A stretch of DNA of 64,000 nucleotides, from the NCBI GenBank assembly GCA_964540565.1, contig CAZINB010000004.1, forward strand, positions 862-64,861. The letters run 5' to 3'. The number at the start of each line of letters is the position of its first letter. Positions within the stretch are counted from its first letter, which is position 1. Shown piece after piece: positions 7,402 to 62,919 of this stretch. The notes beneath the pieces were generated by a model that was not told the DNA's origin, made no database searches, and saw nothing but the letters and a program-made list of their open reading frames with translations. The translations under genes were made by a program, and so were the position numbers. The stretch comes from an uncultured Faecalimonas sp. GTDB lineage: Bacteria; Bacillota; Clostridia; Lachnospirales; Lachnospiraceae.

Positions 7402-8262
7402 ATGGAATATAAGGTATTGTGCAACGGTGTGAAAATGCCACAATTAGGATATGGTGTATATCAGGTGACAAAGGAAGAGTGCGAGCGTTGTGTATTGGAT
7501 GCACTAAAGGCTGGTTATCGCTTGATAGATACGGCACAGTCTTATTTTAATGAGGAGGAAGTAGGCTCAGCAATCAAGAAAAGTGGAATTCCTCGTGAAG
7601 AAATATTTTTAACAACAAAAGTATGGCTTGAACATTATGGGTACGAAGCATGTAAGAAATCAATCGAAGAATCTATGAGAAAATTACAGACAGATTATTT
7701 GGATTTATTGTTGCTTCACCAACCGTTTGCAGATTACTATGGTGCATGGAGAGCCTTGGAAGAATATTATGAGGCTGGAAAGATCAGAGCAATTGGAATT
7801 TCAAATTTCTATCCAGATAGAATGATCGATCTTGCAACATTTGCAAGAATCAAACCGATGATAAATCAAGTAGAAATTCACCCATATCATCAACAAGAAA
7901 TATCAAAAAAATGGCATGATAAATATGGAATTCAGTTGGAAGCATGGGCACCATTTGGAGAAGGCAGAGGAGATATGTTTACAGATACTTTGCTAACAGA
8001 AATTGGTGCAAAATATGGAAAGACTGCTGCTCAAGTGATTCTTAGATGGCATTTACAACGCGGGATTGTAGTGATTCCAAAGTCAGTGCATTATGAAAGA
8101 ATGGTGGAAAACTTTGCTGTATTTGACTTTGCATTAACGGAAGAAGAAATGGAAAAGATAGCTTCCTTGGATAAAAAACAGAGTGCATTTTTCTCTCATA
8201 CAGATCCAAATATGGTAGAATGGTTTGGTCAAATGGTAGAAGAGAGAAAGAAAAAATCGTAA
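7402..8262 (+). CDS. Aldo/keto reductase
   Basis: AKR motifs (LGYGVYQV, GYRLIDTAQSY, DLLLLHQP, IGISNF, VIPKS). Start trimmed to ATG 7402, which has GGAGGGAG upstream. Confidence 0.9.
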   Translation: MEYKVLCNGVKMPQLGYGVYQVTKEECERCVLDALKAGYRLIDTAQSYFNEEEVGSAIKKSGIPREEIFLTTKVWLEHYGYEACKKSIEESMRKLQTDYLDLLLLHQPFADYYGAWRALEEYYEAGKIRAIGISNFYPDRMIDLATFARIKPMINQVEIHPYHQQEISKKWHDKYGIQLEAWAPFGEGRGDMFTDTLLTEIGAKYGKTAAQVILRWHLQRGIVVIPKSVHYERMVENFAVFDFALTEEEMEKIASLDKKQSAFFSHTDPNMVEWFGQMVEERKKKS

Positions 8263-8275
8263 AGGAGAAGGGTTA

Positions 8276-8812
8276 ATGAGTAAGAAAGTTTTGATTTTAT
8301 CGGGCAGTCCTAGAAAAGGTGGAAATTCCGATTTGTTGTGTGATGAATTTATGCGTGGCGCAATGGATGCAGGACATCAAGTAGAAAAAATACGTGTACA
8401 GGAGAAAAAAGTTGCTTATTGTACAGCATGCTATGCCTGTCAAAATACTGGAAACTGTGCAATTAAGGATGATATGGCAGAAATTATGCAGAAGATGATT
8501 GATTGTGATGTTATGGTGCTAGCAAGTCCAGTTTACTTCTATTCGATAGATGCACAATTGAAAGCAGTCATAGATAGAAGTGTGTGTCGTTGGACAGAAG
8601 TGAAGGATAAGGAAATGTATTACATCATGACAGCGGCAGATGGAGAAAGAAGTTCGATGAATACAACGCTTGCATGCTTCAGAGGATATGCAGATTGCGT
8701 AGAAGGTGCCATGGAAAAAGGAATCATTTACGGAACAGGAGTATATCATGCAGGTGAGATTAAAGGAACACCAGCAATGCAAGAAGCCTATGAAATGGGA
8801 AGAGGCATATAA
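8276..8812 (+). CDS. Iron-sulfur flavoprotein / NAD(P)H-dependent FMN reductase-like
   Basis: Flavodoxin-like N-terminus (VLILSGSPRKGGNS) plus a compact CX2CX2CX5C motif (CTACYACQNTGNC), as in Isf-type proteins. Confidence 0.75.
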   Translation: MSKKVLILSGSPRKGGNSDLLCDEFMRGAMDAGHQVEKIRVQEKKVAYCTACYACQNTGNCAIKDDMAEIMQKMIDCDVMVLASPVYFYSIDAQLKAVIDRSVCRWTEVKDKEMYYIMTAADGERSSMNTTLACFRGYADCVEGAMEKGIIYGTGVYHAGEIKGTPAMQEAYEMGRGI

Positions 8813-8820
8813 AAAGAAGA

Positions 8821-8865
8821 ATCAAAACGGGGTACATATCACAGAGATATGTATCTCGTTTTTTT
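8821..8865 (+). terminator. Terminator hairpin, copy 1 of a duplicated ~44-nt element (degenerate stem)
   Basis: ATCAAAACGGGGTACATATCACAGAGATATGTATCTCGTTTTTTT; differs at 4 of 44 positions from the element at 12261-12304. Confidence 0.7.
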
Positions 8866-8985
8866 CATATCATTCATAACGAAACTTTTGCATCAGCAGT
8901 ATTAAATCACTGAAAAGAGATGCTGAATACTTCGGAATATGTTATTCTTATGTAAGAGATTAGCTGCATGAAAAGGAGAAAACTT

Positions 8986-10407
8986 ATGAAAATATTACCA
9001 AAGCGAAAGATGTATCGTTATTGTTTGGCAGATATTGCAAAAGGCTTATTCAACGGTATGATTGGAAACTATTTATTGTATTTCTTTCAACCAACAACAA
9101 AAAGTGGATTACCTGTGTTACTGCCGGAGAGCAAATTTCTTGGATTCATTACGATTATGGCATTTGTGACGGCTGCTGGAAAAATAGTGGACGCTGTAAC
9201 TGATCCATTAGTAGCAAGCATGTCAGATAAATGCACCCACAAAGATGGACGTAGGATGCCATTTATGAAATATTCTGCAATCCCATATGCATTATCGGTA
9301 TTGCTTATCTTTTATGCACCATTTGCAGCAGGTTCCGTGGCAAACGCTATTTGGGTAGGATTCTTCTTAATATCTTATTATGTTGCATATACCTTTTATT
9401 TTATTCCGAGAAATGCGCTGGTACCGGAAATTATACCAGATGCGAAAGCTCGAGTAGGTTATTATGGAATCAGTACTGCATTTTTTATGGGTTCCAGTTC
9501 GTTTATGTATACAGCAACGTTATTTGTAAATTTGTTGAAAAATGCAGGACTTACTCCTCTTTGGTCGTGGCGTGTTGTATTTCTTGTATTTGCGGTAATC
9601 GGTTTGGTTTGCGTATTACTTAGTGCAACAGCATTTCGGGAAAAAGATTATGTGGAAGAAAATACAAAGCCAAAGGAATCTTTATGGAAATCATTTGGTC
9701 TCGTATTGCGAAACAAAAATTTTGTATTGTACGGATTAGGAGATTTGTTTAGCGGAGTATCTATGGCATTTTTCCAAACAGCAATGTTGTATTACATCAC
9801 AATGCTTCTAAATGTGCCAGAATCACAATCCTTTCTCGTTATGCTTTTTGCAATTGCGGTAGCACTAAGTTTATTTCCATTTATTGTGTCATTTAGTCGT
9901 AAATATAGTAAGAAAATTTTACTTGTTGCAGCAAGCATTATATTTACAATAGTATTTGCGTTTATCTATGTAGGTGATAAAATTGCTGCTTTAGCACCAG
10001 GACACGAATTATGGATTGGTTTGGGAATGGGACTTGTAGTAGCTTTTCCATTTGCAGCAATCAATATTCTTCCACAATCTATGTTATCAGATATTATCCA
10101 GCAAGATAGTCTGACAAGTGGTGTGAACCGAGAAGGGTTCTTTTCCGCAACGAAGACATTTATCGAAAAGATTGCATCAGCAGTTGCGATGATGGTGGTA
10201 TCAAGTGTTCTTGCAATTGGTGCACAGACAGGAGAATCCGTTGGCATGGAAGGTGTTAAATTAACAGGAATTTATGCGGGTATCTTTAGTTTGCTGTCAT
10301 TAGTCTTTTTTGCACTGTATAATGAAAAGAAAGTGACACAATCTATCGAAGCCCATACGAAAAAATATGAGGAGATGGAGAGAGGAAGTGAAAATGAAAA
10401 AGCGTAA
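8986..10407 (+). CDS. MFS transporter, GPH-like
   Basis: About 12 TM segments. AAGGAG lies 7 nt upstream of ATG 8986 (the track start 8968 has no RBS). The stop overlaps the start of the next gene. Confidence 0.75.
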   Translation: MKILPKRKMYRYCLADIAKGLFNGMIGNYLLYFFQPTTKSGLPVLLPESKFLGFITIMAFVTAAGKIVDAVTDPLVASMSDKCTHKDGRRMPFMKYSAIPYALSVLLIFYAPFAAGSVANAIWVGFFLISYYVAYTFYFIPRNALVPEIIPDAKARVGYYGISTAFFMGSSSFMYTATLFVNLLKNAGLTPLWSWRVVFLVFAVIGLVCVLLSATAFREKDYVEENTKPKESLWKSFGLVLRNKNFVLYGLGDLFSGVSMAFFQTAMLYYITMLLNVPESQSFLVMLFAIAVALSLFPFIVSFSRKYSKKILLVAASIIFTIVFAFIYVGDKIAALAPGHELWIGLGMGLVVAFPFAAINILPQSMLSDIIQQDSLTSGVNREGFFSATKTFIEKIASAVAMMVVSSVLAIGAQTGESVGMEGVKLTGIYAGIFSLLSLVFFALYNEKKVTQSIEAHTKKYEEMERGSENEKA

Positions 10408-48347: not shown

Positions 48348-48360
48348 TGAGGTGAATCAA

Positions 48361-49122: not shown

Positions 49123-49148
49123 TATTGATTTTAGGAGGATTATAAATC

Positions 49149-49520
49149 ATGAAGAGTTATACAATTACAGTAAATGGAAACGTATATGACGTTACAGTAG
49201 AAGAAAATACAAACGGAGCAGCACCAGTTGCCAGACCAGCAGCTCCAGTAGCAGCACCAAAAGCAGCTCCTAAAGCAGCTCCAGCTCCAGCAGCAAAAGC
49301 AGCAGGAAGCATCAATGTAGAAGCTGGTGCAGCAGGTAAAGTATTCAAAATTGAAGCAAATGTTGGTCAAGCTGTTAAAAGAGGAGAACCAGTTATCATC
49401 ATCGAAGCAATGAAAATGGAAATTCCAGTAGTAGCTCCAGAAGACGGAACAGTTGCAAGCATTAATGTTGCAGTTGGTGACGCAGTGGAAGCAGGAGCAG
49501 TAATGGCTACATTAAACTAG
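49149..49520 (+). CDS. Biotin carboxyl carrier protein (1.3S / MmdC-like)
   Basis: Ala/Pro linker followed by a biotinyl domain with the EAMKME motif. Confidence 0.9.
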   Translation: MKSYTITVNGNVYDVTVEENTNGAAPVARPAAPVAAPKAAPKAAPAPAAKAAGSINVEAGAAGKVFKIEANVGQAVKRGEPVIIIEAMKMEIPVVAPEDGTVASINVAVGDAVEAGAVMATLN

Positions 49521-49560
49521 TAAGAATCATTACGCTAATGACTACACAGGAGGGTGAAAA

Positions 49561-50712
49561 ATGGAATATATTACAACGACGTTAGGAAATCTCGTTGAGC
49601 AAACAGCCTTTATGAATTTAACATATGGTAACTTCATTATGATTGGGTTTGCTTGTCTTTTCCTATACTTAGCAATCAGACATGGATTTGAACCATTGCT
49701 CCTTGTTCCAATTGCATTTGGTATGCTTTTGGTAAACATCTATCCAGATATCATGATCAGTCCAGAAGATTCAGCAAATGGTGTAGGTGGTTTACTTCAC
49801 TATTTCTACATCTTAGATGAATGGGCAATTTTACCATCACTTATCTTTATGGGTGTAGGTGCGATGACAGACTTTGGTCCACTTATTGCAAATCCAAAGA
49901 GTTTCTTATTAGGTGCAGCAGCACAATTCGGGATCTTTGCAGCATACCTTGGCGCTATGGCAATGGGATTCTCAGACAAAGCGGCAGCAGCTATTTCAAT
50001 TATCGGTGGAGCAGATGGTCCTACTTCAATTTTCTTAGCTAGTAAGCTAGAACAAACAGCAATTATGGGACCAATCGCGGTAGCAGCATATTCATATATG
50101 TCATTGGTACCAATTATCCAACCACCAATTATGAAATTATTAACAACAGAAGAAGAACGTAAGATTAAGATGGAACAATTAAGACCAGTTTCGAAATTGG
50201 AAAAAATCTTATTCCCAATTATCATTACAATCGTTGTTTCTTTAATTTTACCTACAACAGCACCACTTGTTGGTATGCTTATGTTAGGTAACTTGTTCAA
50301 AGAATCAGGTGTTGTAAGACAGTTAACAGATACAGCATCGAATGCATTAATGTATATCGTAGTTATCTTACTTGGTACATCAGTAGGTGCAACAACAAGT
50401 GCGGAAGCGTTCCTTAACTTAGATACAATCAAAATCGTTGTATTAGGTTTGGTAGCGTTTGCATTTGGTACAGCAGCCGGTGTATTGTTTGGTAAACTTA
50501 TGTGCAAAGTTACAGGTGGTAAAATCAACCCACTTATTGGTTCAGCAGGTGTTTCTGCGGTACCGATGGCAGCCAGAGTATCACAAAAAGTTGGTGCGGA
50601 AGCTGACCCTACAAACTTCTTACTGATGCATGCGATGGGACCAAACGTTGCAGGTGTTATTGGTACAGCTGTAGCAGCTGGTACATTTATGGCAGTATTT
50701 GGTGTTAAATAA
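49561..50712 (+). CDS. Na+-translocating decarboxylase beta subunit (OadB/MmdB/GcdB family)
   Basis: 383 aa polytopic protein with family-typical segments ([49 protein letters not shown]). Confidence 0.9.
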
Positions 50713-50729
50713 TCTTGGAGGACGATAGA

Positions 50730-52139
50730 ATGGAAATCACAAAAAAACCAATTAAAATTACGGAAACAATTTTACGTGATGCTCACCAATCTTTGATTGC
50801 GACTAGAATGACAACAGAACAAATGGTTCCAATCATTGAAAAAATGGATAAAGTTGGTTACCACTCAGTAGAATGCTGGGGTGGTGCAACATTTGATGCA
50901 TCTCTTCGTTTCTTAAAAGAAGATCCATGGGAAAGACTTCGTAAATTCCGCGATGGATTCAAAAATACAAAATTACAAATGTTATTCCGTGGACAAAATA
51001 TCTTAGGATACCGTCCATACGCAGATGATGTAGTAGAATACTTTGTAAAAAAATCAGTAGCAAATGGAATTGATATCATTCGTATTTTCGATTGCTTAAA
51101 TGATATGCGTAACCTTCAAACAGCTGTAAAAGCTGCTGTTGCAGAAAAAGCAGATGCTCAAGTAGCACTTTCTTATACATTAGGTGATGCTTATACATTA
51201 GAATACTGGATGAACATTGCAAAACAAATCGAAGATATGGGAGCTACATCTATCTGTATCAAAGATATGGCTGGTTTATTAGTTCCTTACAAAGCAACAG
51301 AATTAGTAGAAGCAATGAAAGATGCTACAAATCTTCCAATTCAACTTCATACACACTATACATCAGGGGTTGCATCTATGACATATTTAAAAGCTGTAGA
51401 AGCAGGTGTTGATGTAATTGATACAGCAATGTCTCCATTTGCTATGGGTACATCTCAACCAGCAACAGAAGTTATGGTTGAAACATTTAAAGGAACTCCA
51501 TATGATACAGGATTTGATCAAAATCTTCTTGCTGAAATCGCAGATTACTTTAGACCAATCCGTGATGAAGCTTTAGCATCAGGCTTATTAAATCCAAAGA
51601 ATATGGGTGTTGATATTAAAACATTATTATATCAAGTACCAGGTGGTATGTTATCAAACTTAACATCTCAATTAAAAGAACAAGGTGCAGAAGATAAATT
51701 CTATGACGTATTAGCTGAAATTCCAAAAGTACGTAAAGACCTTGGAGAACCACCTCTAGTAACACCATCTTCACAAATCGTTGGTACACAAGCTGTATTT
51801 AACGTATTAATGGGAGAACGTTACAAAATGGCTACTAAAGAAACAAAAGATGTTTTAAGTGGAAAATATGGTGCAACTGTAAAACCATTTGATAAAGAAG
51901 TACAAAAGAAATGTATCGGTGATGCAGAAGTAATTACTTGCCGTCCAGCAGATTTAATTCCTGATGAATTAGATACATTAAGAGGGGAAATGGCACAATG
52001 GTCTAAACAAGACGAAGACGTATTATCATATGCATTATTCCCACAAGTAGCTACTGAATTCTTCAAATATAGAGAAGCTCAAGAAACAAAAGTGGATCAA
52101 ACAGTAGCAGATACAGAAAATGGAAGCTATCCAGTATAA
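50730..52139 (+). CDS. Oxaloacetate decarboxylase alpha / transcarboxylase 5S-type carboxyltransferase, without a biotinyl domain
   Basis: HMGL-like TIM barrel (ITETILRDAHQSL, ECWGGATFD, ICIKDMAGL, LHTHYTSG). The ORF ends without an AMKM biotinylation motif. Start trimmed to ATG 50730, which has GGAGGA upstream. Confidence 0.85.
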   Translation: MEITKKPIKITETILRDAHQSLIATRMTTEQMVPIIEKMDKVGYHSVECWGGATFDASLRFLKEDPWERLRKFRDGFKNTKLQMLFRGQNILGYRPYADDVVEYFVKKSVANGIDIIRIFDCLNDMRNLQTAVKAAVAEKADAQVALSYTLGDAYTLEYWMNIAKQIEDMGATSICIKDMAGLLVPYKATELVEAMKDATNLPIQLHTHYTSGVASMTYLKAVEAGVDVIDTAMSPFAMGTSQPATEVMVETFKGTPYDTGFDQNLLAEIADYFRPIRDEALASGLLNPKNMGVDIKTLLYQVPGGMLSNLTSQLKEQGAEDKFYDVLAEIPKVRKDLGEPPLVTPSSQIVGTQAVFNVLMGERYKMATKETKDVLSGKYGATVKPFDKEVQKKCIGDAEVITCRPADLIPDELDTLRGEMAQWSKQDEDVLSYALFPQVATEFFKYREAQETKVDQTVADTENGSYPV

Positions 52140-52171: not shown

Positions 52172-53260
52172 ATGGATACAAATAAATTGGGTCGTATTTT
52201 AAAAGAGATGGAAGCGCAAGGAATGCCACAAATGATCATTACTGATCCTCCATCAATCTATTATTTAACAGGAAAATGGATTCATCCAGGTGAAAGAATG
52301 CTTGCATTATACTTGAACGTGAATGGAGATCATAAAATTATTATCAATAAACTTTTCCCACAAGAAAAAGATCTTGGTGTAGAAATCGTTTGGTATGATG
52401 ATGTGGAAGATGCGGTAGAAATCTTAAGTAGATATGTAGAAAAAGATAAACCTATCGGAATCGATAAAGTATGGTCAGCACGTTTCTTATTAAGACTTCA
52501 AGAACTTGGTGCAGGAAGCAAATTCTTAAATGGTTCTTTGATCGTTGATGGTGTAAGACAAATCAAAGACGAAAAAGAACAACAATTAATGAGAGAAGCT
52601 GGAGCAGCAAATGATAAAATCGTAGAAAGATTGATTCCATATGTAGTAAAAGGCTACACAGAATTAGAAATGGAAAAGATCTGTCGCGATATGTATGCTG
52701 AAACAGGACATTCAGATGTATCCTTTACTCCAATTATCGGATATGGAAAATCTGGTGCTGATCCACATCATGCAAATGCAAATATCAAAGGTCAAGTGGG
52801 AGACAGCGTTATCATTGATATCGGCGGTATCTTAAATGATTATTGTTCAGATTTAACTAGAACAGTATTCATTGGAGAAGTATCAGATAGAGCACGTGAA
52901 GTATATGAAGTTGTAAAAGAAGCACAATTACGTGGTATTGCTGCTGCAAAACCTGGAAACAGAATGTGTGATGTAGATAAAGCTTGTAGAGATTACATTA
53001 CAGAAAAAGGTTTTGGAGAATACTTTACACATAGAACAGGACATTCTATTGGTATGGAAGATCATGAATATGGTGATGTATCTTCAGCAAATACAGCAAT
53101 CATCAAACCAGGTCAATGTTTCTCAATTGAACCAGGTATCTACTTGATGGATGAAGGTATTGGTGTTCGTATCGAAGATATCGTTCTTATTACAGAAGAT
53201 GGATGTGAAACACTTAATAACTATACAAAAGATTTAATTGTTGTTCCTGTAGAAGAATAA
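52172..53260 (+). CDS. M24-family Xaa-Pro aminopeptidase/dipeptidase
   Basis: Pita-bread fold metal ligands (DIGG...YCSDLTRT, HRTGHSIGMEDHE, SIEPGIY, GVRIED). Confidence 0.9.
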   Translation: MDTNKLGRILKEMEAQGMPQMIITDPPSIYYLTGKWIHPGERMLALYLNVNGDHKIIINKLFPQEKDLGVEIVWYDDVEDAVEILSRYVEKDKPIGIDKVWSARFLLRLQELGAGSKFLNGSLIVDGVRQIKDEKEQQLMREAGAANDKIVERLIPYVVKGYTELEMEKICRDMYAETGHSDVSFTPIIGYGKSGADPHHANANIKGQVGDSVIIDIGGILNDYCSDLTRTVFIGEVSDRAREVYEVVKEAQLRGIAAAKPGNRMCDVDKACRDYITEKGFGEYFTHRTGHSIGMEDHEYGDVSSANTAIIKPGQCFSIEPGIYLMDEGIGVRIEDIVLITEDGCETLNNYTKDLIVVPVEE

Positions 53261-53283
53261 TAAAAATATCCTTTAGAAATGAT

Positions 53284-53320
53284 AAATAGGGTGGGATTCT
53301 TGTGAAATCCCACCCTATTT
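53284..53320. terminator. Bidirectional terminator between the M24 peptidase gene and the repeat-peptide gene
   Basis: AAATAGGGTGGGATT-CTTGTG-AAATCCCACCCTATTT, a perfect 15-bp stem. Confidence 0.85.
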
Positions 53321-53355
53321 ATGTTGTTCTTGATTTACTCAATGTTACAGCTCTG

Positions 53356-53547
53356 TTATTCTCCTAAGCAGTTCATGTCGTTCAAACTGCAAGAAGAGTC
53401 GTCGTCTTCTGAGAGGCAATTCATATCATTGAGGCCACATGTGATATCATCATCGTCGGCGATGCAATTCATATCGTTGAGTCCACATGTAACTTCATCG
53501 TCATCAGTTACTCCGTTCATGTTAGTAATACCTAAATTTTTGTCCAT
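53356..53547 (-). CDS. Orphan 63-aa acidic, Cys-rich tandem-repeat peptide (unknown family)
   Basis: ATG 53547 has GGAGGAGG 6 nt upstream; stop TAA. Translation: MDKNLGITNMNG VTDDDEVTCGLNDMNC IADDDDITCGLNDMNC LSEDDDSSCSLNDMNC LGE. Synonymous divergence between the repeat copies supports translation in this frame. Confidence 0.7.
   Translation of the reverse strand: MDKNLGITNMNGVTDDDEVTCGLNDMNCIADDDDITCGLNDMNCLSEDDDSSCSLNDMNCLGE
53368..53511 (-). repeat. 3 x 48-nt tandem coding repeat
   Basis: Units at 53368-53415, 53416-53463 and 53464-53511, each encoding [acidic run]-x-(T/S)-C-(G/S)-LNDMNC. Confidence 0.9.
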
Positions 53548-53583
53548 AAAAAACCTCCTCCATGAGTTCGTACATTTTCTTAT

Positions 53584-53613
53584 ATTATATCTCATAGTTG
53601 AATAAAATAACAA
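53584..53613 (-). promoter_or_regulatory. Candidate sigma-A-type promoter for the repeat peptide
   Basis: On the minus strand: TTGTTA-18 nt-TATAAT, about 35 nt upstream of the ATG. Confidence 0.4.
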
Positions 53614-53643
53614 GTATCTGAAAGAAAAAAGTAAAAGAATTAG

Positions 53644-53672
53644 TTGATGTAAAATAAAGAGAAGATTATAAT
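53644..53672 (+). promoter_or_regulatory. Candidate sigma-A-type promoter for ahpC
   Basis: TTGATG-17 nt-TATAAT, about 30 nt upstream of the ahpC ATG. Confidence 0.5.
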
Positions 53673-53701
53673 AAAATCAGAAAATAATAGGAGGTATCCA
53701 A

Positions 53702-54268
53702 ATGGAAAGTTTAATCAATCAAGAGATAACAGAATTTAAGGTACAAGCGTATAGACAAAAGGAATTTTTGGAAGTAAGTAAGGAAGATGTGTTAGGACAT
53801 TGGTCAGTATTTTTCTTTTATCCAGCGGACTTTACATTTGTTTGTCCAACAGAATTGGGAGATTTGCAAGATTTTTATGAAGAATTTCAAGAACTAGGAT
53901 GTGAAGTTTATTCTGTATCCATGGATTCCCATTTTGTTCATAAAGCATGGGCTGATGCGTCAGAAACGATTTCTAAGATTGAATATACGATGTTGGCAGA
54001 TCCTACAGGAAAACTTTCGGACTTTTTTGGAGTTCATGTGAAAGAATTAGGACAAGCACTTCGTGGAACATTTATTTTAAATCCAGAAGGAAAAATCAAA
54101 GCATACGAAATTCATGATATGGGAATTGGAAGAAATGCAGAAGAATTGCTTCGTAAAGTACAAGCGGCGCAATTCGTAGAAGAGCATGGTGATCAAGTAT
54201 GTCCTGCAAAATGGAAACCTGGAGAAGAAACATTGATGCCGAGTTTAGATTTAGTTGGAATGCTATAG
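53702..54268 (+). CDS. ahpC: Typical 2-Cys peroxiredoxin (alkyl hydroperoxide reductase C)
   Basis: Peroxidatic Cys motif DFTFVCPTE and resolving Cys in VCPAKW; 188 aa. Confidence 0.95.
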   Translation: MESLINQEITEFKVQAYRQKEFLEVSKEDVLGHWSVFFFYPADFTFVCPTELGDLQDFYEEFQELGCEVYSVSMDSHFVHKAWADASETISKIEYTMLADPTGKLSDFFGVHVKELGQALRGTFILNPEGKIKAYEIHDMGIGRNAEELLRKVQAAQFVEEHGDQVCPAKWKPGEETLMPSLDLVGML

Positions 54269-54278
54269 AGGGAAAAAT

Positions 54279-54941
54279 ATGAGTTTGTTAGAAAAGATAC
54301 CATCAGAAAGTGCGTTGATTACTGCTGAACTTCAACAACAGATTACAACTATTTTTTCAAAATTAGATAAGAAAGTTCGGTTAGTGGCAATTTTGGACGA
54401 AACAGAAGAAAAGTCAATGGAACTGGGAAGTTTTTTGAAAGTGATTTCGAGCTGCAGTGATCAATTAGAATTAGAATTATATACAAAAGGAGAATGTCCA
54501 GATAAGGAAACGGAATTGCATGCACAACATTTACCTGTGGTTGGAATTTATGGAGATACCTATACAGGAGCGGCGTTCCATGGAGTTCCTGGTGGGAAAG
54601 AAATAAATTCTTTTATTGCAGCAATTGGAAACTATGGTGGTGCAGGGCAACCATTGGATAAGCGATTGAAAAAGAATATAGAAAAAATTCAAAAGCCAAT
54701 GAATTTGAAAATATTTGTATCGCTTGCTTGCCATCATTGTCCACTCGTAGTGGCAGCTTGCCAGAAAATAGCAATTGCAAATCCGTTTGTAACAGCAGAA
54801 ATGTATGATGCAAAATTGTATGAGGATATTGTACAAAAGTATAAAGTGGAAAGAGTTCCGATGGTGGTAGTGAATGAAGAGCAGGTAATCATGGGACAGA
54901 AATCCATAGAAGAAATGGTAAATCGACTTATGAATATGTAA
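54279..54941 (+). CDS. Stand-alone AhpF N-terminal-domain-like thioredoxin-fold protein
   Basis: 220 aa collinear with the AhpF double-Trx-fold N-terminal domain. Redox motif CHHC (SLACHHCP) and a VPMVVVN cis-Pro-type region. No FAD/NAD(P)H module follows. Start trimmed to ATG 54279. Confidence 0.7.
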   Translation: MSLLEKIPSESALITAELQQQITTIFSKLDKKVRLVAILDETEEKSMELGSFLKVISSCSDQLELELYTKGECPDKETELHAQHLPVVGIYGDTYTGAAFHGVPGGKEINSFIAAIGNYGGAGQPLDKRLKKNIEKIQKPMNLKIFVSLACHHCPLVVAACQKIAIANPFVTAEMYDAKLYEDIVQKYKVERVPMVVVNEEQVIMGQKSIEEMVNRLMNM

Positions 54942-55127: not shown

Positions 55128-57284
55128 ATGAAAAAGTTTATTGAAAAAAGCAAATGCTTAAGAAAAACTTTGTTAGCTTATCTGCTTAGCGTATCGTTAA
55201 TCTTTTCATTAGGAATGACAGCGATGGCAGAAGAAGCTGGTAGTTCAGAAAGAGACTATACAGGATGGGACACATTAAAAGTGTTCGAAACAACAGACGT
55301 ACATGGTTACATTACAGATGTTTCAACTTATAAAGAAGAAACTTTCCAATACAGACTTGCTTATATTGCAAATATTGTAAATAAAGCACGTGCTGAAATG
55401 GGAGAAGAGAATGTAATTCTTCTTGATAGCGGTGACATTTATCAAAGTACACCTCATTCAAATCTTACATATGGTAATTATATGCGTGCAGCATTTGATG
55501 TAATGGGGTATGATGCATTAGGTCTTGGAAATCATGAATTTGACTGGGATGTAACAAAATATGCAGCTGATGCAGATGGTACAATGTCAAGTTATGAAAC
55601 AACAAAGACAGGAGAAGTTGATCCTACAATTCCTGTAGTAATGGCAAATTTATATTATGCAGGAACATCAGATAGAGTAAACTTTACAAAAGATTATGTA
55701 GTTGTTCAAAAAGGTGATTATAAAGTGGCAATTGTTGGATGGACAGACGAATATACAGCTGACATCAAAGCTTCACAAATTGAACCATATGATATTGATG
55801 ACAACGTAGAACATTTGAACGCATTGGTGGAAACTGTTGAAGAAACAGAAACTCCAGATATTATGATCGTTCTTACACATGGTGCTCCAGATACACTTGC
55901 AGCACAAGTAGATGCAGATCTTGTAGATTTAGTTTGTGGTGGACATACTCATTTAAGAACATGTGGAACAGCGTCAAATGGAGTTGACTATATTCAAGGA
56001 AACTGCAAAGCACAAGGATATGCAACAGCAGAAATTAAAATCAATCCAGAAACAAAAGAAGTTGATGTAATTTCTCCAAAATATACATGGATTACATCTA
56101 CAACGGATAATTCTCATCTTTACTACAAAGATGGTACAAATGCAGAACTTGATGGAGAAATTGTAGAAATCAGTCAAGAAGCATGGGATGCTGTAAAAGA
56201 TAACATGTATGAAGTGCTTGCAACAGTAGATGAAGATATTACAAAAGAAGTATTGGACGGCGGTATTGTAATTAGTTCAGCTGGAAAATGGCTTACAGGT
56301 CTTATGATGGATGCTACAAAAGAATACAACACAGTTGCAGCATTTGCAAATAGTGGAGGTATCCGTACAAGCTTAATAAAAGAAGCAGGTGCAGAAACAA
56401 GAGATATTACAATAGCAGACGTTTATACAATCAGTCCATTTGGTAACCGAATCTTAACATATGCTATTACAGGACAACAAATGGCACAACAAATCGAAAA
56501 TACAATTCGATTTGAAACTGAAACATCAAATGCAACTGTTTACAATTATACAAACTTCGGAGATCAATTCTCTGGAATTTCTGTTACATTTGAAAGGGTG
56601 GGAACTGGAATCAAAGTATTATCAATTGTTACAGATGATGGACAAGTTATTGATGTGAATGATAATACAAAAACATACAATGTAGCTGTAAATGAATATT
56701 GTGCAACACTTACATATGATGGAATTGATTCTGTATTCAAAAATCTAACACCATTAGCAGCAATGGATGAAGCTCCAGTTGATAATGAAAGTGCAATTGC
56801 AGCATTGAGAGAACGTAGAGAAGCAGAAGGTCTTGAAATGAAATTAGACACAACTGCTTGCTTGAAAGTAGATACTGGTGAAGCAGCAGCTTCTACTCAA
56901 ATGTCACAACTTTTAGAAACAGCAGAACAATTTAATGCAAATAATGTAACTGCAGCAAATAAAGCAGAATTACAACAACTTGTAAATGACATGAAAGCTT
57001 TAATCGATGGTGGTAAACTTACAGATGCACAAGTAGTAGTAATGGAAAAACAAATTGCAGATATGGAAACATTAATTGGAAGATTAAATACAACAGATGA
57101 TAACAAAACAGACAATAAAGTAGATCAAAATACAGGCAATAACAAAGCTGATAAAAATGAATCTACAAATGCAGTGAAAACAGGTGATGCAGCGAATGTA
57201 ATGCCTTGGATTGCTGTTATGGGAATCTGTGGAGCGGTTGTAGTTATGAATGCAGAAAGAGCAAAACGCAAAGAAAATAATTAG
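55128..57284 (+). CDS. Secreted, cell-wall-sorted bifunctional metallophosphatase / 5'-nucleotidase
   Basis: Signal peptide; metallophosphatase motifs (TTDVHGY, SGDIYQ, GNHEFDWD, THGAP, GGHTH); 5'-nucleotidase C-domain. The C-terminus is AVKTGD plus a hydrophobic stretch plus RAKRKENN. Confidence 0.85.
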   Translation: MKKFIEKSKCLRKTLLAYLLSVSLIFSLGMTAMAEEAGSSERDYTGWDTLKVFETTDVHGYITDVSTYKEETFQYRLAYIANIVNKARAEMGEENVILLDSGDIYQSTPHSNLTYGNYMRAAFDVMGYDALGLGNHEFDWDVTKYAADADGTMSSYETTKTGEVDPTIPVVMANLYYAGTSDRVNFTKDYVVVQKGDYKVAIVGWTDEYTADIKASQIEPYDIDDNVEHLNALVETVEETETPDIMIVLTHGAPDTLAAQVDADLVDLVCGGHTHLRTCGTASNGVDYIQGNCKAQGYATAEIKINPETKEVDVISPKYTWITSTTDNSHLYYKDGTNAELDGEIVEISQEAWDAVKDNMYEVLATVDEDITKEVLDGGIVISSAGKWLTGLMMDATKEYNTVAAFANSGGIRTSLIKEAGAETRDITIADVYTISPFGNRILTYAITGQQMAQQIENTIRFETETSNATVYNYTNFGDQFSGISVTFERVGTGIKVLSIVTDDGQVIDVNDNTKTYNVAVNEYCATLTYDGIDSVFKNLTPLAAMDEAPVDNESAIAALRERREAEGLEMKLDTTACLKVDTGEAAASTQMSQLLETAEQFNANNVTAANKAELQQLVNDMKALIDGGKLTDAQVVVMEKQIADMETLIGRLNTTDDNKTDNKVDQNTGNNKADKNESTNAVKTGDAANVMPWIAVMGICGAVVVMNAERAKRKENN

Positions 57285-57414: not shown

Positions 57415-58992
<1,578 letters not shown>

Positions 58993-59034
58993 AGAAATGA
59001 TTCAATGAATTGATTAGAAAAGGGGGAAACCTAT

Positions 59035-59748
59035 ATGTTACCATATTTGGCAGAATTTTTAGGAACTATGATGCTTATCATTCTTGGGGATGGTGTAGTT
59101 GCAAACGTTAACTTAAATAAATCAGGTATGAAAGGTGGCGGATCTGTTCAGATCACATTAGCTTGGGGACTTGCAGTTATGGTTCCTGCATGTATCTTCG
59201 GAAAAGCTTCAGGAGCTTCGTTCAACCCTGCTTTAACATTAGCGTTAGCACTTGATGGAAGTTTTTCATGGGCAATGGTGCCAGGTTATATTATCGCTCA
59301 ATTCGCAGGAGCTTTTGTAGGTGCAGTCATTGTTTACTTAATGTTTAAAGATCAATTTGATGCAACTCCAGATCCTGGATCAAAATTAGGTGTATTCTCT
59401 ACTGGTCCTTCTATTCCAAATCTTCCAAGAAATATTTTCTGTGAAGCTGTTGCTACTTTCGTATTAGTATTTGCTATCAAAGGTATGGCACAAATCGAAG
59501 GTATTGCAGGTGGTTTAGGAAACTTTGTAGTATTCGGAATTATCGTTTCAATTGGTATGTCTTTAGGTGGATTAACAGGTTATGCTTTAAATCCAGCACG
59601 TGATATCGGACCTCGTATCGCACATGCAGTTTTACCAATTCAAGGAAAAGGAAGTTCAAACTGGGGCTACGCAATCGTTCCACTTGTTGGACCAATCATT
59701 GGTGCAGTTGTAGCTGTATTATTATATGGAGCAATTCCTTGGGCATAG
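59035..59748 (+). CDS. glpF: Glycerol uptake facilitator (aquaglyceroporin)
   Basis: Two NPA boxes (SFNPALT; LNPARD); six TM segments. Confidence 0.95.
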   Translation: MLPYLAEFLGTMMLIILGDGVVANVNLNKSGMKGGGSVQITLAWGLAVMVPACIFGKASGASFNPALTLALALDGSFSWAMVPGYIIAQFAGAFVGAVIVYLMFKDQFDATPDPGSKLGVFSTGPSIPNLPRNIFCEAVATFVLVFAIKGMAQIEGIAGGLGNFVVFGIIVSIGMSLGGLTGYALNPARDIGPRIAHAVLPIQGKGSSNWGYAIVPLVGPIIGAVVAVLLYGAIPWA

Positions 59749-59768
59749 GATTAAGCAAATTATGAAGG

Positions 59769-59808
59769 TGAGTCGAGCTTGCGATACTAGTTATCTGGGC
59801 TCGACTCA
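59769..59808 (+). other. Intercistronic stem-loop between glpF and the G3P dehydrogenase-like genes
   Basis: TGAGTCGAGC-20 nt-GCTCGACTCA (perfect 10-bp, GC-rich stem); no T-run follows. Confidence 0.5.
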
Positions 59809-59832
59809 GCTACTTTAAGGGGGAACTAAAAA

Positions 59833-61269
59833 ATGTATGATGTAATTATTATCGGAGGCGGTGTGTCAGGTGCTGCTTCTGCAAGAGAATTATCTCGTTA
59901 TAAAGTAAATGTATGCGTATTAGAAAAAGAAGACGATGTTTGCTGTGGTACATCAAAAGCAAACAGCGCAATTGTGCATGCGGGATTTGATGCTGCAAAT
60001 GGTTCGTTGATGGCAAAATTAAACGTACGTGGAAATGAAATGATGGAAGCACTTTCAAAAGAATTAGATTTTCCATTCAAAAGAAATGGCTCTCTTGTTA
60101 TTTGCCGCGCAGAAGAAGATATGCCAAACTTGGAAGCACTTTATGAAAGAGGTGTAAAGAATGGCGTAAAAGATCTTCGAATTATTTACAAAGATGAATT
60201 ATTGGAAATGGAACCAAATATTTCAGAAGAATGCTATGCTGCACTTTATGCACCAACAGGTGGAATTGTTTGTCCATTCCATTTGAATATCGCGTTAGCT
60301 GAAAATGCAAATGTAAATGGTGTTGATTTCAAATTTAATACAGAAGTTCTCGATATCAAGAAAATAGACGGAGGATTTGAATTAGTTACAAATCAAGGCT
60401 CCTTTGAAACAAAATATGTTGTCAATGCAGCTGGTGTGTATGCAGACAAGTTCCATAATATGGTAAGCGAAAAGAAAATTCACATTACACCAAGACGAGG
60501 AGATTATTGTCTTCTTGATAAGACAGCGGGAAATCATGTTAGCAAAACAATCTTTGCTCTACCAAGTAAATTAGGAAAAGGAATTTTAGTATCCCCTACA
60601 ATTCATGGGAACCTATTACTTGGTCCTACTGCAGTTGATATTGAAGATAAAGAAGGAACAAATACAACAGCAGCTGGGTTAGCAGATGTTATTTCAAAAG
60701 CAGGATTAAATGTGAAAGACATTCCATATCGTCAAGTAATCACATCTTTTGCAGGACTTCGTGCACATGAAGATAATCACGAATTTATTATTGGTGAAGT
60801 GGAAGATGCAAAAGGATTTATTGACTGTGCAGGTATTGAATCACCAGGTTTGACAAGTGCACCAGCAATTGGTGAGATGGTAGCAAATATTTTGAAAGAT
60901 TTGATGGGATTAGAAGAAAAAGAAGATTTCATCGCAACTAGAAAAAATATTTTAAATCCAGAAAACTTATCTTTAGAAGAAAGAAAAGCATTAATCAAAG
61001 AAAACCCAGCATACGGAAATATTATTTGCCGCTGTGAAATGATTACAGAAGGTGAAATCGTTGATGCAATCAGACGTCCTCTTGGAGCACGCTCCTTAGA
61101 TGCAGTAAAACGTAGAACAAGAGCAGGTATGGGACGTTGCCAATCAGGTTTCTGTTCACCAAGAACGATGGAAATTCTAGCAAGAGAATTAGGAGTTGAT
61201 ATGTCTGAGATTACAAAGACAGGAAAAGGCTCTGAAATTATTGTGGGAATCAACAAAGATCGTTTATAA
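59833..61269 (+). CDS. FAD-dependent glycerol-3-phosphate dehydrogenase/oxidase-like protein with a BFD-like [2Fe-2S] domain
   Basis: DVIIIGGGVSGAA dinucleotide fold; C-terminal CRCEMITEGEIVDAI...GRCQSGFC. Confidence 0.8.
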   Translation: MYDVIIIGGGVSGAASARELSRYKVNVCVLEKEDDVCCGTSKANSAIVHAGFDAANGSLMAKLNVRGNEMMEALSKELDFPFKRNGSLVICRAEEDMPNLEALYERGVKNGVKDLRIIYKDELLEMEPNISEECYAALYAPTGGIVCPFHLNIALAENANVNGVDFKFNTEVLDIKKIDGGFELVTNQGSFETKYVVNAAGVYADKFHNMVSEKKIHITPRRGDYCLLDKTAGNHVSKTIFALPSKLGKGILVSPTIHGNLLLGPTAVDIEDKEGTNTTAAGLADVISKAGLNVKDIPYRQVITSFAGLRAHEDNHEFIIGEVEDAKGFIDCAGIESPGLTSAPAIGEMVANILKDLMGLEEKEDFIATRKNILNPENLSLEERKALIKENPAYGNIICRCEMITEGEIVDAIRRPLGARSLDAVKRRTRAGMGRCQSGFCSPRTMEILARELGVDMSEITKTGKGSEIIVGINKDRL

Positions 61270-61286
61270 GAAGAGGAGGCAGAAAT

Positions 61287-62549
61287 ATGAAATCATATGA
61301 TATTGTAATCGTAGGAGGAGGTCCAGCAGGTCTTGCCGCTGCCGCTTCTGCAAAGGAAAATGGCATTGATAGTATTTTAATTCTTGAAAGAGATAAAGAA
61401 TTAGGTGGTATTTTAAATCAATGTATTCATAATGGATTTGGGTTACATACATTTAAAGAAGAGTTAACTGGTCCTGAATATGCAGGAAGATTTATCGATA
61501 AAGTGAAAGCACTTGATATCGAATACATGTTAAATACAATGGTTATGGACATTTCGAAAGAAAAAGTTGTAACAGCTATGAATCGAGAAGAAGGATTATT
61601 TGAAATTCAAGCAAAAGCAATTATTCTTGCTATGGGATGTCGTGAACGCCCTCGTGGAGCTTTGAATACACCAGGATATCGTCCAGCAGGTATTTTCTCA
61701 GCTGGTACAGCACAACGTCTTGTAAATATGGAAGGCTATTTACCAGGACGTGAAGTTGTTATTCTTGGATCTGGTGATATTGGACTGATCATGGCTCGCC
61801 GTATGACATTAGAAGGTGCAAAAGTAAAAGTTGTTGCAGAATTAATGCCATATTCAGGAGGGCTAAAGAGAAATATCGTTCAATGTTTAGATGACTTTGG
61901 AATTCCATTGAAATTAAGTCATACAGTAGTTGACATTGATGGAAAAGAAAGAGTGAAAGGTGTTACTCTTGCACAAGTAGATGAAAGAAATAAACCAATT
62001 CCAGGAACAGAAGAATACATTCCATGTGATACATTGTTATTATCTTGCGGTTTAATTCCTGAAAATGAATTATCAAGAGGATTGAACCTTGATATGGAAA
62101 TGGTAACAAATGGTCCAGTTGTAAATGAAAGCTTAGAAACAAGTATGGAAGGTGTATTTGCTTGTGGTAACGTACTTCATGTACATGACTTGGTTGACTT
62201 TGTTTCTGAAGAAGCAGCTATGGCAGGGAAAAATGCAGTACGATATATCAAAGGGGAAACAGAACGAGATGCAGCTCGTATTGATATTGTTCCTACAGCA
62301 GGCGTTCGTTATACAGTGCCTAAATTTATCAGACCAGATAATATGGAAGATAATTTGACAGTTCGTTTCCGTGTAGGCGGTGTTTATAAGAATTGTTATG
62401 TTGCTACATATTTTGGAGAGGAATGTGTTATGAGAAGAAAACGTCCAGTTGTAGCACCAGGAGAAATGGAAGAAATTAAGTTATCAAAAGCAAAATTAGC
62501 GGAATATCCAGATCTTAAGACAATTACCGTGAAAATCGAGGAGGCGTAA
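61287..62549 (+). CDS. FAD/NAD(P)-dependent pyridine nucleotide-disulfide-type oxidoreductase (glp-associated)
   Basis: Two Rossmann motifs (DIVIVGGGPAGLAAA; VVILGSGDIGL). Confidence 0.8.
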   Translation: MKSYDIVIVGGGPAGLAAAASAKENGIDSILILERDKELGGILNQCIHNGFGLHTFKEELTGPEYAGRFIDKVKALDIEYMLNTMVMDISKEKVVTAMNREEGLFEIQAKAIILAMGCRERPRGALNTPGYRPAGIFSAGTAQRLVNMEGYLPGREVVILGSGDIGLIMARRMTLEGAKVKVVAELMPYSGGLKRNIVQCLDDFGIPLKLSHTVVDIDGKERVKGVTLAQVDERNKPIPGTEEYIPCDTLLLSCGLIPENELSRGLNLDMEMVTNGPVVNESLETSMEGVFACGNVLHVHDLVDFVSEEAAMAGKNAVRYIKGETERDAARIDIVPTAGVRYTVPKFIRPDNMEDNLTVRFRVGGVYKNCYVATYFGEECVMRRKRPVVAPGEMEEIKLSKAKLAEYPDLKTITVKIEEA

Positions 62550-62553
62550 AATA

Positions 62554-62919
62554 ATGGAAAAAAGAGATTTGATTTGTATTAGATGTCCTTTAGGATGTAT
62601 GCTTGCGGTAGAAATGGAAAATGGAGAAGTCGTTAGTGTTACAGGTAATACATGTCCAAGAGGAAAAGCTTACGCAGAAAAAGAAGTGACAAATCCAACA
62701 AGAATTGTAACTTCAACTGTAAAAGTTGCAGGAGGAGACAGAGTATCAGTAGCTTGTAAAACAAAAGATGATATTCCAAAAGATAAAATTTTTGATGTTG
62801 CAAGAGCATTGAAAGATGTCGTTGCACAAGCACCAGTTGCAATTGGTGATGTACTAGTAGAAAATGTTGCAGGAACTGGAGTAGAAATCGTGGCTACTTC
62901 TCATGCAGATGTGAAATAA
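62554..62919 (+). CDS. DUF1667-domain protein (glp-associated, Cys-rich)
   Basis: CIRCPLGC...GNTCPRG motif pattern; third gene of a triad that I recall as conserved in Clostridia. Confidence 0.75.
   Translation: MEKRDLICIRCPLGCMLAVEMENGEVVSVTGNTCPRGKAYAEKEVTNPTRIVTSTVKVAGGDRVSVACKTKDDIPKDKIFDVARALKDVVAQAPVAIGDVLVENVAGTGVEIVATSHADVK

Follow-up and report, generated by a model that had tools for sequence, protein, structure and literature searches.

The window analyzed here, a 64-kb (64,000-nucleotide) stretch of a contig from an uncultured Faecalimonas sp., carries on its minus strand a gene for a small, highly acidic repeat protein (53356..53547, 63 codons plus a stop codon), which we label PEP; the label does not refer to phosphoenolpyruvate. 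The translation, running from 53547 to 53356, is MDKNLGITNMNG-[VTDDDEVTCGLNDMNC]-[IADDDDITCGLNDMNC]-[LSEDDDSSCSLNDMNC]-LGE, and it contains 17 aspartate and glutamate residues, one lysine, six cysteines, five methionines, and nine asparagines. A preliminary description, made from the window sequence alone, had reported a 63-codon minus-strand open reading frame (ORF) with 17 acidic residues against one basic residue and six cysteines, and our translation and recount agree with it. The two expression signals named in that description were also located on the minus strand: a Shine-Dalgarno (SD) sequence, GGAGGAGG, lies at 53561..53554 with a spacing of 6 nt to the PEP ATG, and a sigma-70-type promoter-like element, TTGTTA-18-TATAAT, lies at 53613..53584 and matches 10 of the 12 consensus positions. 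This promoter-like element may drive a monocistronic PEP transcript in the window. A GC-rich hairpin terminator (53282..53322; 17 pairs, 0.2 expected in shuffled sequences) is common to PEP and the convergent gene pepP (52172-53260). The perfect stem described as 15 bp long was found (15-17 bp), but the scan called the hairpin on the plus strand only, and the T-run on the minus strand is weaker. The window is Faecalimonas-like, sharing 91.5% nucleotide identity over 7.4 kb with a contig of a Faecalimonas metagenome-assembled genome (MAG).

Conservation of the sense strand

An intact orthologous ORF was recovered from 89 of the 91 loci examined. Among 83 distinct orthologous coding sequences, the sense frame was open in every case, without the frame breaks that would have spoken against a protein product, and the median dN/dS was 0.17. 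The entropies of the three codon positions were 0.56, 0.48, and 1.43, so the wobble position is the most variable, and the invariant leucine is encoded by all six leucine codons (CTG 65, TTA 60, CTC 44, TTG 21, CTT 19, and CTA 4). An SD core lies no more than 20 nt from the ATG in 77 of 81 distinct orthologous upstream regions. The preliminary description had argued for conservation of the peptide from the codon changes between the first and third repeat copies of the window gene, and these changes (TGT>TGC, CTC>TTG, GAT>GAC, AAT>AAC, and GGA>AGT, the last replacing glycine by serine) are present. Its argument is borne out by the dN/dS value, the use of six leucine codons, and the conserved SD and ATG, and these sequence comparisons indicate that PEP is a genuine, translated, and conserved gene under purifying selection on the peptide.

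The opposite strand carries a longer ORF (53321-53605, plus strand), which is open in 81 of the 83 orthologues with an apparent dN/dS of 0.22. This value is low because the wobble positions of the antisense frame coincide with those of the sense frame. A comparison of dN/dS values (0.17 versus 0.22) was thus not decisive alone as a discriminator, and the leucine codons and the start signals were used instead. Switches between CTN and TTR at the conserved leucine are synonymous in the sense frame but nonsynonymous on the antisense strand; the antisense ORF has an ATG with an SD in only 2 of 83 orthologues, compared with 77 of 81 for the sense ORF, and lacks an ATG in its first part in 25 of 83; and the sense ORF is co-oriented with the surrounding operon in most genomes. 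These observations favor the sense ORF over the antisense ORF, which the preliminary description had named as the possible conserved product. We also note that the codons GAY, AAY, ATG, and TGY, which are used in the sense frame, hold no stop codons in reverse complement, so that such an antisense frame can mislead gene callers and dN/dS tests alike.

The same data bear on the idea that PEP is not a functional protein at all, but either a cis-acting leader ORF for dhaKLM or for the glp operon or the shadow of a conserved antisense ORF or RNA. The open antisense frame with its low apparent dN/dS would fit the latter, and the position of the gene 65 bp upstream of dhaK in 35 loci would fit the former. 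However, in the window and some 20 other loci, PEP either stands as a monocistronic gene or has no link to dhaK, the sense ORF is the one that several sources report from gene calling, and an Rfam search of 52900-54000 gave only subthreshold noise; together with the leucine-codon switches and the rarity of antisense start signals, these points leave a nonprotein explanation hardly credible.

Repeat units, cysteine pairs, and cysteine-free relatives

The protein contains three 16-residue (48-nt) units, as had been described, each an acidic run followed by a loop flanked by two cysteines. On the minus strand, unit 1 is VTDDDEVT-CGLNDMNC (residues 13-28, 53464..53511), unit 2 is IADDDDIT-CGLNDMNC (residues 29-44, 53416..53463), and unit 3 is LSEDDDSS-CSLNDMNC (residues 45-60, 53368..53415). 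Pairwise identities among them are 12/16, 9/16, and 10/16 at the amino acid level and 37/48, 30/48, and 28/48 at the nucleotide level. Tandem Repeats Finder called no DNA repeat in 53200-53750, the copies being too diverged, and the repeat is therefore kept at the protein level. In unit 1, C21, L23, M26, N27, and C28 are invariant (alignment A1), and in unit 3, C53, M58, N59, and C60 are invariant (alignment A2). The Cys pair of unit 2 is absent in some relatives, where the replacements SHGLNNMNG, AFALEDMNA, and FSITDMNA show both cysteines always gone together. The protein has no CxxC motif; only C-x6-C pairs are present. An EF-hand or DxDxDG reading of the acidic run and loop was rejected on inspection, given its unsuitable register and the variable composition of the acidic run.

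A fourth copy of the unit, LGITNMNG, precedes these three at residues 5-12 (53512..53535, minus strand; alignments A1, A2, and A4). It is free of cysteine in all Cys-type sequences examined and can be aligned to the units of the Cys-free relatives described below, [FY]S[IL]x[ND]MNG. Judged from these alignments, this N-terminal copy is the ancestral form of the repeat.

PEP had been considered an orphan, a view that cannot be kept. A word-indexed search of 5.8 billion proteins gave 119 homologue clusters, a profile search of 1.8 billion representative proteins gave 119 representatives at the 50% identity level, and a scan of one genome per GTDB species found a relative encoded in 159 genomes. 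The carriers are Lachnospiraceae, including Faecalimonas, Enterocloster, Lacrimispora, Hungatella, and others, with Mediterraneibacter also among the cultured carriers, and individual variants occur on hundreds of metagenomic contigs. All clusters that were given a name by their source are called hypothetical. Scans of the window peptide and 10 relatives against Pfam, NCBIfam, PADLOC, and PHROGs returned only noise, profile searches of the PDB with the family gave no match, a full-text literature search for the LNDMNC repeat core found no paper, and a literature search on the gene context found nothing relevant. On the evidence of these searches, the family is previously undescribed, with no Pfam, NCBIfam, PHROG, PADLOC, or PDB entry and no paper found.

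A profile search, and a second one started from its hits, revealed a set of Cys-free relatives, which are Clostridia proteins of 55-75 residues, typically with four units of the form [F/Y]-S-[I/L]-x-[N/D]-M-N-G-[I/V/M]-[S/T]. The two sets retrieve each other: the Cys-type profile finds Cys-free members (E ~1e-7 to 1e-3), and the Cys-free profile finds Cys-type members (E down to ~1e-11). When aligned unit for unit, the Cys-free proteins have an aromatic residue at the position of the first cysteine and a glycine at the position of the second. We propose the name NMNG-repeat family for the whole, comprising proteins of 55-80 residues with three to five units of about 16 residues, the first of which is always Cys-free, and a core of [FYC]-x-[LIF]-x-[ND]-[MLQ]-N-[GC...]; the window protein has four such units. 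A metagenome scan for Cys-free relatives found none with one alignment as the query and five loci, two of them informative, with another. Both types can occur together, as on one MAG contig (JAPJQL010000002.1) that carries a Cys-type copy at a DUF1667/dhaK junction (L043) and a Cys-free paralogue (L099). In another sequence (P0259, on a 495-kb NCBI contig), the C-terminal piece of an Fe-hydrogenase-like domain (PF02906) is fused in frame to the last two Cys-free units, which is either a real fusion or deletion or an artefact of assembly or gene calling.

The distribution of cysteines within the Cys-type branch follows the units. Among non-N-terminal units, 226 have both cysteines, 38 have neither, and two have a single one (one of these is an adapter artefact), although shared ancestry inflates these counts. 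The replacing residues are F, Y, H, or S at position 1 of the unit and A, G, or S at position 8. Several distinct replacement pairs were seen (F..A, Y..A, H..G, S..S, and S..G), and the change of the Cys pair therefore happened more than once. Intact members carry zero, two, three, or four Cys-pair units, whereas forms with a single pair are nearly absent. The preliminary description had suggested a tabulation of repeat number and site conservation; the number of Cys pairs is not constant, and the loop motif is kept in the Cys-free relatives. The simplest reading of this pattern is that positions 1 and 8 of a unit touch each other and that the conserved G-L-N-D-M-N loop, not the cysteines, would be the ancient functional element. 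Because Cys-free homologues exist, the cysteines appear to have been added in one lineage to a repeat scaffold that is older, and this speaks against Cys chemistry as the whole function. In the Lachnospiraceae branch that includes the window, the aromatic residue and glycine of two to four units seem to have been replaced by C-x6-C, and the linkers are strongly acidic.

Genes around the family

In the window, PEP is transcribed divergently from ahpC (53702..54268, plus strand), which encodes a typical 2-Cys peroxiredoxin (TIGR03137, 296.7 bits against a cutoff of 272; Pfam AhpC-TSA). It is followed by trx3 (54255..54941, plus strand), which encodes a stand-alone thioredoxin-fold protein with a CHHC motif that resembles PDO and the AhpF N-terminal domain (NTD). 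Trx3 matches the C-terminal part of TIGR03143 with 214 bits and the PDO model TIGR02187 with 135 bits, both below the whole-protein cutoffs, and its PDB matches are 5h29/6il7 (E=1e-46), the AhpF NTD 1zyn, and the PDO 1a8l. Further downstream lies a glycerol module (57469..62919, plus strand) with glpK, glpF, a glycerol 3-phosphate (G3P) oxidase-like DAO+BFD protein, a Pyr_redox_2 flavoprotein (PyrRedox), and DUF1667. The DAO+BFD protein resembles type-2 G3P oxidase with 321 bits, below the cutoff of that model; this likeness gives a rationale for a link to H2O2.

We surveyed the neighbors of the family by comparing reference proteins with the ORFs within 10 kb on each side of 90 loci and by unsupervised clustering of the flanking ORFs; 78 of the loci are species-level loci, and 39 form a fully flanked subset with at least 9 kb on both sides. 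The recurrent neighbors were limited to trx3, glpK, glpF, the G3P-oxidase-like gene, PyrRedox, DUF1667, the glpP antiterminator, ahpC, and dhaK, dhaL, and dhaM. An unlabelled ORF cluster that recurred in 39 loci was the antisense shadow of DUF1667. The most constant neighbor is trx3, found in 36 of the 39 fully flanked loci, followed by glpF (32), glpK (31), the G3P enzyme (29), ahpC (24), and dhaKLM (20); ahpC adjoins PEP in 11 species-level loci. The commonest order, on one strand, is ahpC-trx3-glpP-glpK-glpF-G3PDH-PyrRedox-DUF1667-[PEP]-dhaK-dhaL-dhaM. PEP directly follows DUF1667 in 50 loci (median gap 74 bp) and directly precedes dhaK in 35 loci (median gap 65 bp). In an alternative layout, of which the window is one example, PEP is divergent from ahpC or trx3 and has its own promoter, and in eight loci (L006, L058, L061, L062, L067, L078, L079, and L087) ahpC, trx3, and PEP occur without glp genes. 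The divergent thiol-peroxidase pair had been taken as the only consistent neighbor, but the link to glycerol, G3P oxidation, and dihydroxyacetone (DHA) kinase is equally strong, and the window has such a module from 57469. The alternative view of PEP as a redox partner of the thiol peroxidase, offered in the preliminary description as a fallback, holds up, given the PDO/AhpF-NTD-like gene in 36 and ahpC in 24 of the 39 loci. The family is widespread and strongly constrained and has an unusually consistent genomic address in abundant gut anaerobes.

We considered whether an ahpC gene had been missed, or contained selenocysteine, in the loci that seemed to lack it. By tblastn, ahpC is truly absent from these loci, and trx3 is kept beside PEP; Trx3 must therefore have a substrate other than AhpC there. 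In loci L017, L018, L066, L074, and L085 and in about 20 co-directional loci, trx3 heads the glycerol cluster without ahpC within 10 kb. Where ahpC is present, the peroxiredoxin is presumably served by the co-encoded CxxC PDO-like protein, and no AhpF-type flavoprotein reductase domain accompanies the AhpC/PDO-like pair in the cluster.

This missing reductase domain would suit a simpler role for the peptide as a poly-dithiol, either a stoichiometric reductant or thiol buffer for the PDO-like protein and AhpC or a scavenger of H2O2 or of electrophiles from glycerol catabolism, such as methylglyoxal and DHA. Six cysteines and five methionines per chain, and the tight synteny with trx3/ahpC and a triose-producing pathway, are in keeping with such a role. 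However, constraint spans the whole G-L-N-D-M-N loop and persists in Cys-free relatives, which a simple thiol buffer would not need, and a ribosomally made sacrificial scavenger would be costly. No disulfide reductase for the peptide is evident either, since the PyrRedox translation, on inspection, has no CxxC pair. We consider this role improbable.

The neighborhood is also informative about the suggestion, made in the preliminary description, that PEP is a multi-core precursor of a peptide that is ribosomally synthesized and then post-translationally modified (RiPP), of pheromone or ranthipeptide type. Here, the C-x3-D or N-C residues would be cross-linked by a radical-SAM enzyme encoded elsewhere, and the units would be released as signals or antimicrobials. 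The layout of repeated core-like units is suggestive, the C-x3-D spacing is that of freyrasin, in which six cysteines are linked to the C-beta of aspartate, and SCIFF-type peptides are common in Clostridia (PMC8326336). Of 241 Cys-type units, 221 have C-x3-D and 20 have C-x3-N; such spacing is by itself no diagnostic feature. Across the 78 species-level loci, the flanks of ±10 kb hold no recurrent radical-SAM/SPASM enzyme, peptidase, or ABC exporter, so that co-occurrence of the kind proposed in the preliminary description was found with ahpC (24 of 39) but not with maturases or exporters. A B12-rSAM gene lies near one Cys-free relative only. In the 64-kb window, there is no ORF of at least 150 residues with CxxxCxxC apart from one shadow ORF, in agreement with the earlier statement that no radical-SAM enzyme is encoded there. 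An NCBIfam scan of the window peptide at E<=10 gave only a spurious 6.9-bit MovA match, and ten family members scanned at E<=1 matched no RiPP model, including SCIFF TIGR03973. PEP has no leader-like region, double-Gly, or other cleavage motif: only 4-12 N-terminal residues precede the Cys-free repeat copy. It is embedded in, and co-oriented with, a catabolic operon, and the paired loss of cysteines with replacement by an aromatic residue and glycine is unexpected for Cys-to-Asp cross-links. Nor does a precursor role account for the Cys-free homologues. A RiPP precursor is therefore very unlikely, and the preliminary suggestion finds little in these comparisons to sustain it.

The Cys-free relatives occupy related places. 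The gene of P0194 is divergent from a glpP-dhaKLM-glpK-glpF-G3PDH-PyrRedox cluster whose glpK is 88% identical to that of the window, and one Cys-free copy follows dhaM in a glycerol cluster from a fermentation metagenome. In Caproiciproducens sp. R2 (CP195750; L094 6017-8909), a Cys-free member stands in the order encapsulated ferritin - encapsulin - desulfoferrodoxin - [Cys-free member] - rubrerythrin, and a Clostridiaceae member lies near encapsulated ferritin and encapsulin. With some Cys-free relatives placed beside desulfoferrodoxin/rubrerythrin or encapsulated ferritin, the link to oxidative stress extends to the family as a whole. The Cys-free paralogue L099 is transcribed divergently from an iron ABC transporter operon of FecCD type that also encodes a Fer4 protein and MntP, and two Cys-free members have neither a glycerol nor an oxidative-stress context. 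Neither trx3 nor ahpC was found in the available flanks around the glycerol-linked Cys-free copies (L092/93 and L106/107), which is compatible with a PDO-like protein that travels with the Cys pairs. A near-palindrome, CAATAACAATTACTATTATTG, lies between the -10 region and the SD of the Cys-free gene in L094 and looks like a candidate Fur/PerR-type operator.

The iron genes among these neighbors (encapsulated ferritin, the FecCD-type transporter, desulfoferrodoxin, and rubrerythrin) bring in the main rival to a thiol switch, a metal-binding mini-protein. In this rival, two to four C-x6-C pairs would together bind Fe, Zn, or another thiophilic metal in a Cys4-Cys6 site. The protein would carry electrons for the G3P oxidoreductase complex, as an acidic, rubredoxin-like carrier, or would sense or chaperone metal under oxidative stress. 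Ferredoxins and rubredoxins are small and acidic, and PEP is likewise small and very acidic; its position directly after G3PDH-PyrRedox-DUF1667 in 50 loci would suit an electron carrier; and the occurrence of zero, two, three, or four Cys pairs, almost never one, is expected if at least four thiolates are needed. On the other hand, the loop motif persists in Cys-free relatives whose genes stand in glycerol clusters of the same kind, and thiolate ligation is therefore not the core function of the family. The number of Cys pairs varies between close relatives, neither CxxC knuckles nor CxxCxxCxxxCP is present, and no metalloprotein family in Pfam, NCBIfam, or the PDB was matched. We regard a metal site as unlikely, though a serious contender.

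Several loci showed further features near PEP. A motif, TGTACA-N12-TGTCAA, lies about 125 nt upstream of the PEP ATG, before the -35 box, in nine loci (L005, L006, L062, L066, L067, L074, L078, L085, and L087). It is present wherever PEP has its own promoter in the lineages of those loci and absent from the promoter in the window, and only one other match occurs in 1.66 Mb of loci; it is probably a regulator-binding site. A role as an ahpC operator was rejected, as the motif is absent upstream of ahpC/trx3 in 46 co-directional clusters. In Lachnospiraceae bacterium JLR.KK009 (CP143549; L062 7498-10192), the PEP promoter region is present in two copies, with a gene for a 619-aa transposase (7808..9667) in between; the upstream copy continues into the first 17 PEP codons and then diverges, and the intact gene follows the second copy. 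This arrangement looks like an insertion-sequence insertion with a duplicated PEP 5' end. In the window itself, a gene for a 718-aa 5'-nucleotidase/metallophosphoesterase that has a signal-like segment at its N terminus and a hydrophobic anchor at its C terminus (55128-57284, plus strand) lies between trx3 and glpK, a position that it has, among the loci examined, only here and in the closest relative, L011. Upstream of pepP, a five-gene cluster (46908-52139, plus strand) resembles a Na+-translocating decarboxylase on inspection of the translations, with 479-aa carboxyltransferase-like, 280-aa membrane-anchored, 123-aa biotin-carrier-like, 383-aa membrane beta-like, and 474-aa alpha-like products.

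Proposed function and comparison with known systems

The conserved neighborhood supports the view that PEP is a small cytoplasmic protein tied functionally to glycerol/G3P oxidation and to peroxide/oxygen defence. For its mode of action, we tentatively propose, with distinctly less than even confidence, a small repeat protein in which redox-switchable Cys pairs close the loops, the state of the pairs being set by AhpC and the PDO-like protein. A thiol-disulfide switch is the most economical proposal because the Cys branch nearly always occurs with a CxxC oxidoreductase and often with a peroxiredoxin. In this proposal, the G-L-N-D-M-N loops would be the working surface of the protein. The loop-closing residues at positions 1 and 8 would touch, so that closure in the Cys version would depend on the thiol/disulfide state. 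Peroxide would oxidize the Cys pairs, directly or by a relay through the 2-Cys peroxiredoxin AhpC, and the co-encoded PDO/AhpF-NTD-like CxxC protein would reduce them again. The oxidized form would have closed loops and be functional, whereas the reduced form would have open loops. PEP might then serve the G3P-oxidizing, H2O2-producing glycerol module, together with its AhpC defence, as an accessory or regulatory factor gated by peroxide. Disulfide formation, electron exchange with Trx3 and AhpC, and any regulatory output are steps that we infer.

Five points weigh against a thiol-disulfide switch. The strong co-transcription-like linkage to DUF1667 and dhaK might reflect a function in glycerol metabolism that has nothing to do with peroxide. 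Only two independent loci, both with cut flanks, underlie the absence of trx3 near Cys-free relatives. AlphaFold2 gave no confident fold, with a pLDDT of 56 and no secondary structure for the window peptide (43-sequence alignment) and a pLDDT of 65 and a pTM of 0.29 for the Cys-free P0194 (44-sequence alignment), whose model had no Foldseek match in the PDB; the contact between positions 1 and 8 accordingly rests on covariation that is inflated by ancestry. A cooperative Cys4-6 metal site would account for the scarcity of single-pair forms at least as well as independent disulfides would. Finally, to our knowledge, C-x6-C is no known redox motif.

A wider proposal, which we think doubtful, is that the ribosomally encoded, repeat-built dithiol peptide is a new part of anaerobe peroxide defence. 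In gut Lachnospiraceae, it would either donate electrons to, or accept them from, the stand-alone PDO-like protein and AhpC as their missing redox partner or be a peroxide-gated throttle on H2O2-producing G3P oxidation, and it would have evolved from a Cys-free four-hairpin scaffold by a swap of the aromatic-Gly contact for a Cys pair. The probability left over from the readings named here falls to functions that cannot be named.

Among the abundant gut Lachnospiraceae, at least 159 species-level genomes carry the family, cultured hosts included. How AhpC is reduced in strict anaerobes without glutathione and AhpF is poorly understood, as is how these organisms cope with the peroxide of their own flavoenzymes, and a dedicated small protein tied to a peroxide/glycerol gene set offers a concrete, testable way into both. 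If an aromatic-Gly contact was indeed exchanged for a Cys pair in evolution, as it appears, this would be a clean natural example of a redox switch installed on an existing scaffold. If PEP turned out to be a metal site or an inert accessory, a false RiPP lead would still be removed from genome-mining lists. PEP is a good experimental lead, as cultured hosts are available.

Compared with known systems, PEP resembles freyrasin (PapA) and SCIFF peptides in that these are small and Cys-rich, with repeated C-x3-D, six cysteines, and a common occurrence in Clostridia (PMC8326336). However, freyrasin and SCIFF precursors are defined by an adjacent radical-SAM/SPASM maturase and a match to a curated model, neither of which PEP has. 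Unlike theirs, the cysteines of PEP co-vary as intra-unit pairs and are dispensable in homologues, and its gene lies inside a catabolic/peroxide-defence cluster. Peroxiredoxins are fed by dithiol relays in several systems, namely, trypanothione-tryparedoxin-TXNPx, lipoamide(SucB)-AhpD-AhpC, and AhpF N-terminal domain-AhpC. The PEP locus is similar in that a 2-Cys peroxiredoxin and a thioredoxin-fold CxxC protein are co-encoded with a thiol-pair carrier, and the flavoprotein reductase domain is missing. The difference is that the candidate carrier is a ribosomally made 63-aa repeat protein with C-x6-C pairs and without an identified reductase. In peroxiredoxin-to-target relays and thiol-switch proteins such as Orp1-Yap1 and Hsp33, a peroxidase-linked Cys pair toggles between an inactive reduced form and an active disulfide form, as proposed here for PEP. 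PEP has no sequence or structural similarity to these proteins, and its homologues replace the Cys pair by a constitutive contact of an aromatic residue and glycine.

Thioredoxin-fold oxidoreductases differ from PEP, which has no CxxC and no predicted fold, whereas the neighboring Trx3 has that fold. Metallothionein, rubredoxin, and ferredoxin differ as well, as PEP does not show the Cys motifs of these families and its cysteines are absent from many homologues. A structural lead is offered by the Tenebrio antifreeze protein, a disulfide-stapled beta-solenoid of 12-residue TCTxSxxCxxAx coils. Like PEP, it has short tandem units with one intra-unit Cys pair and conserved Thr/Asn, and the Cys-free relatives of PEP have an Asn-Gly turn. 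PEP differs from it in being a cytoplasmic, bacterial protein for which AlphaFold2 predicts no solenoid and in being built from 16-residue units.

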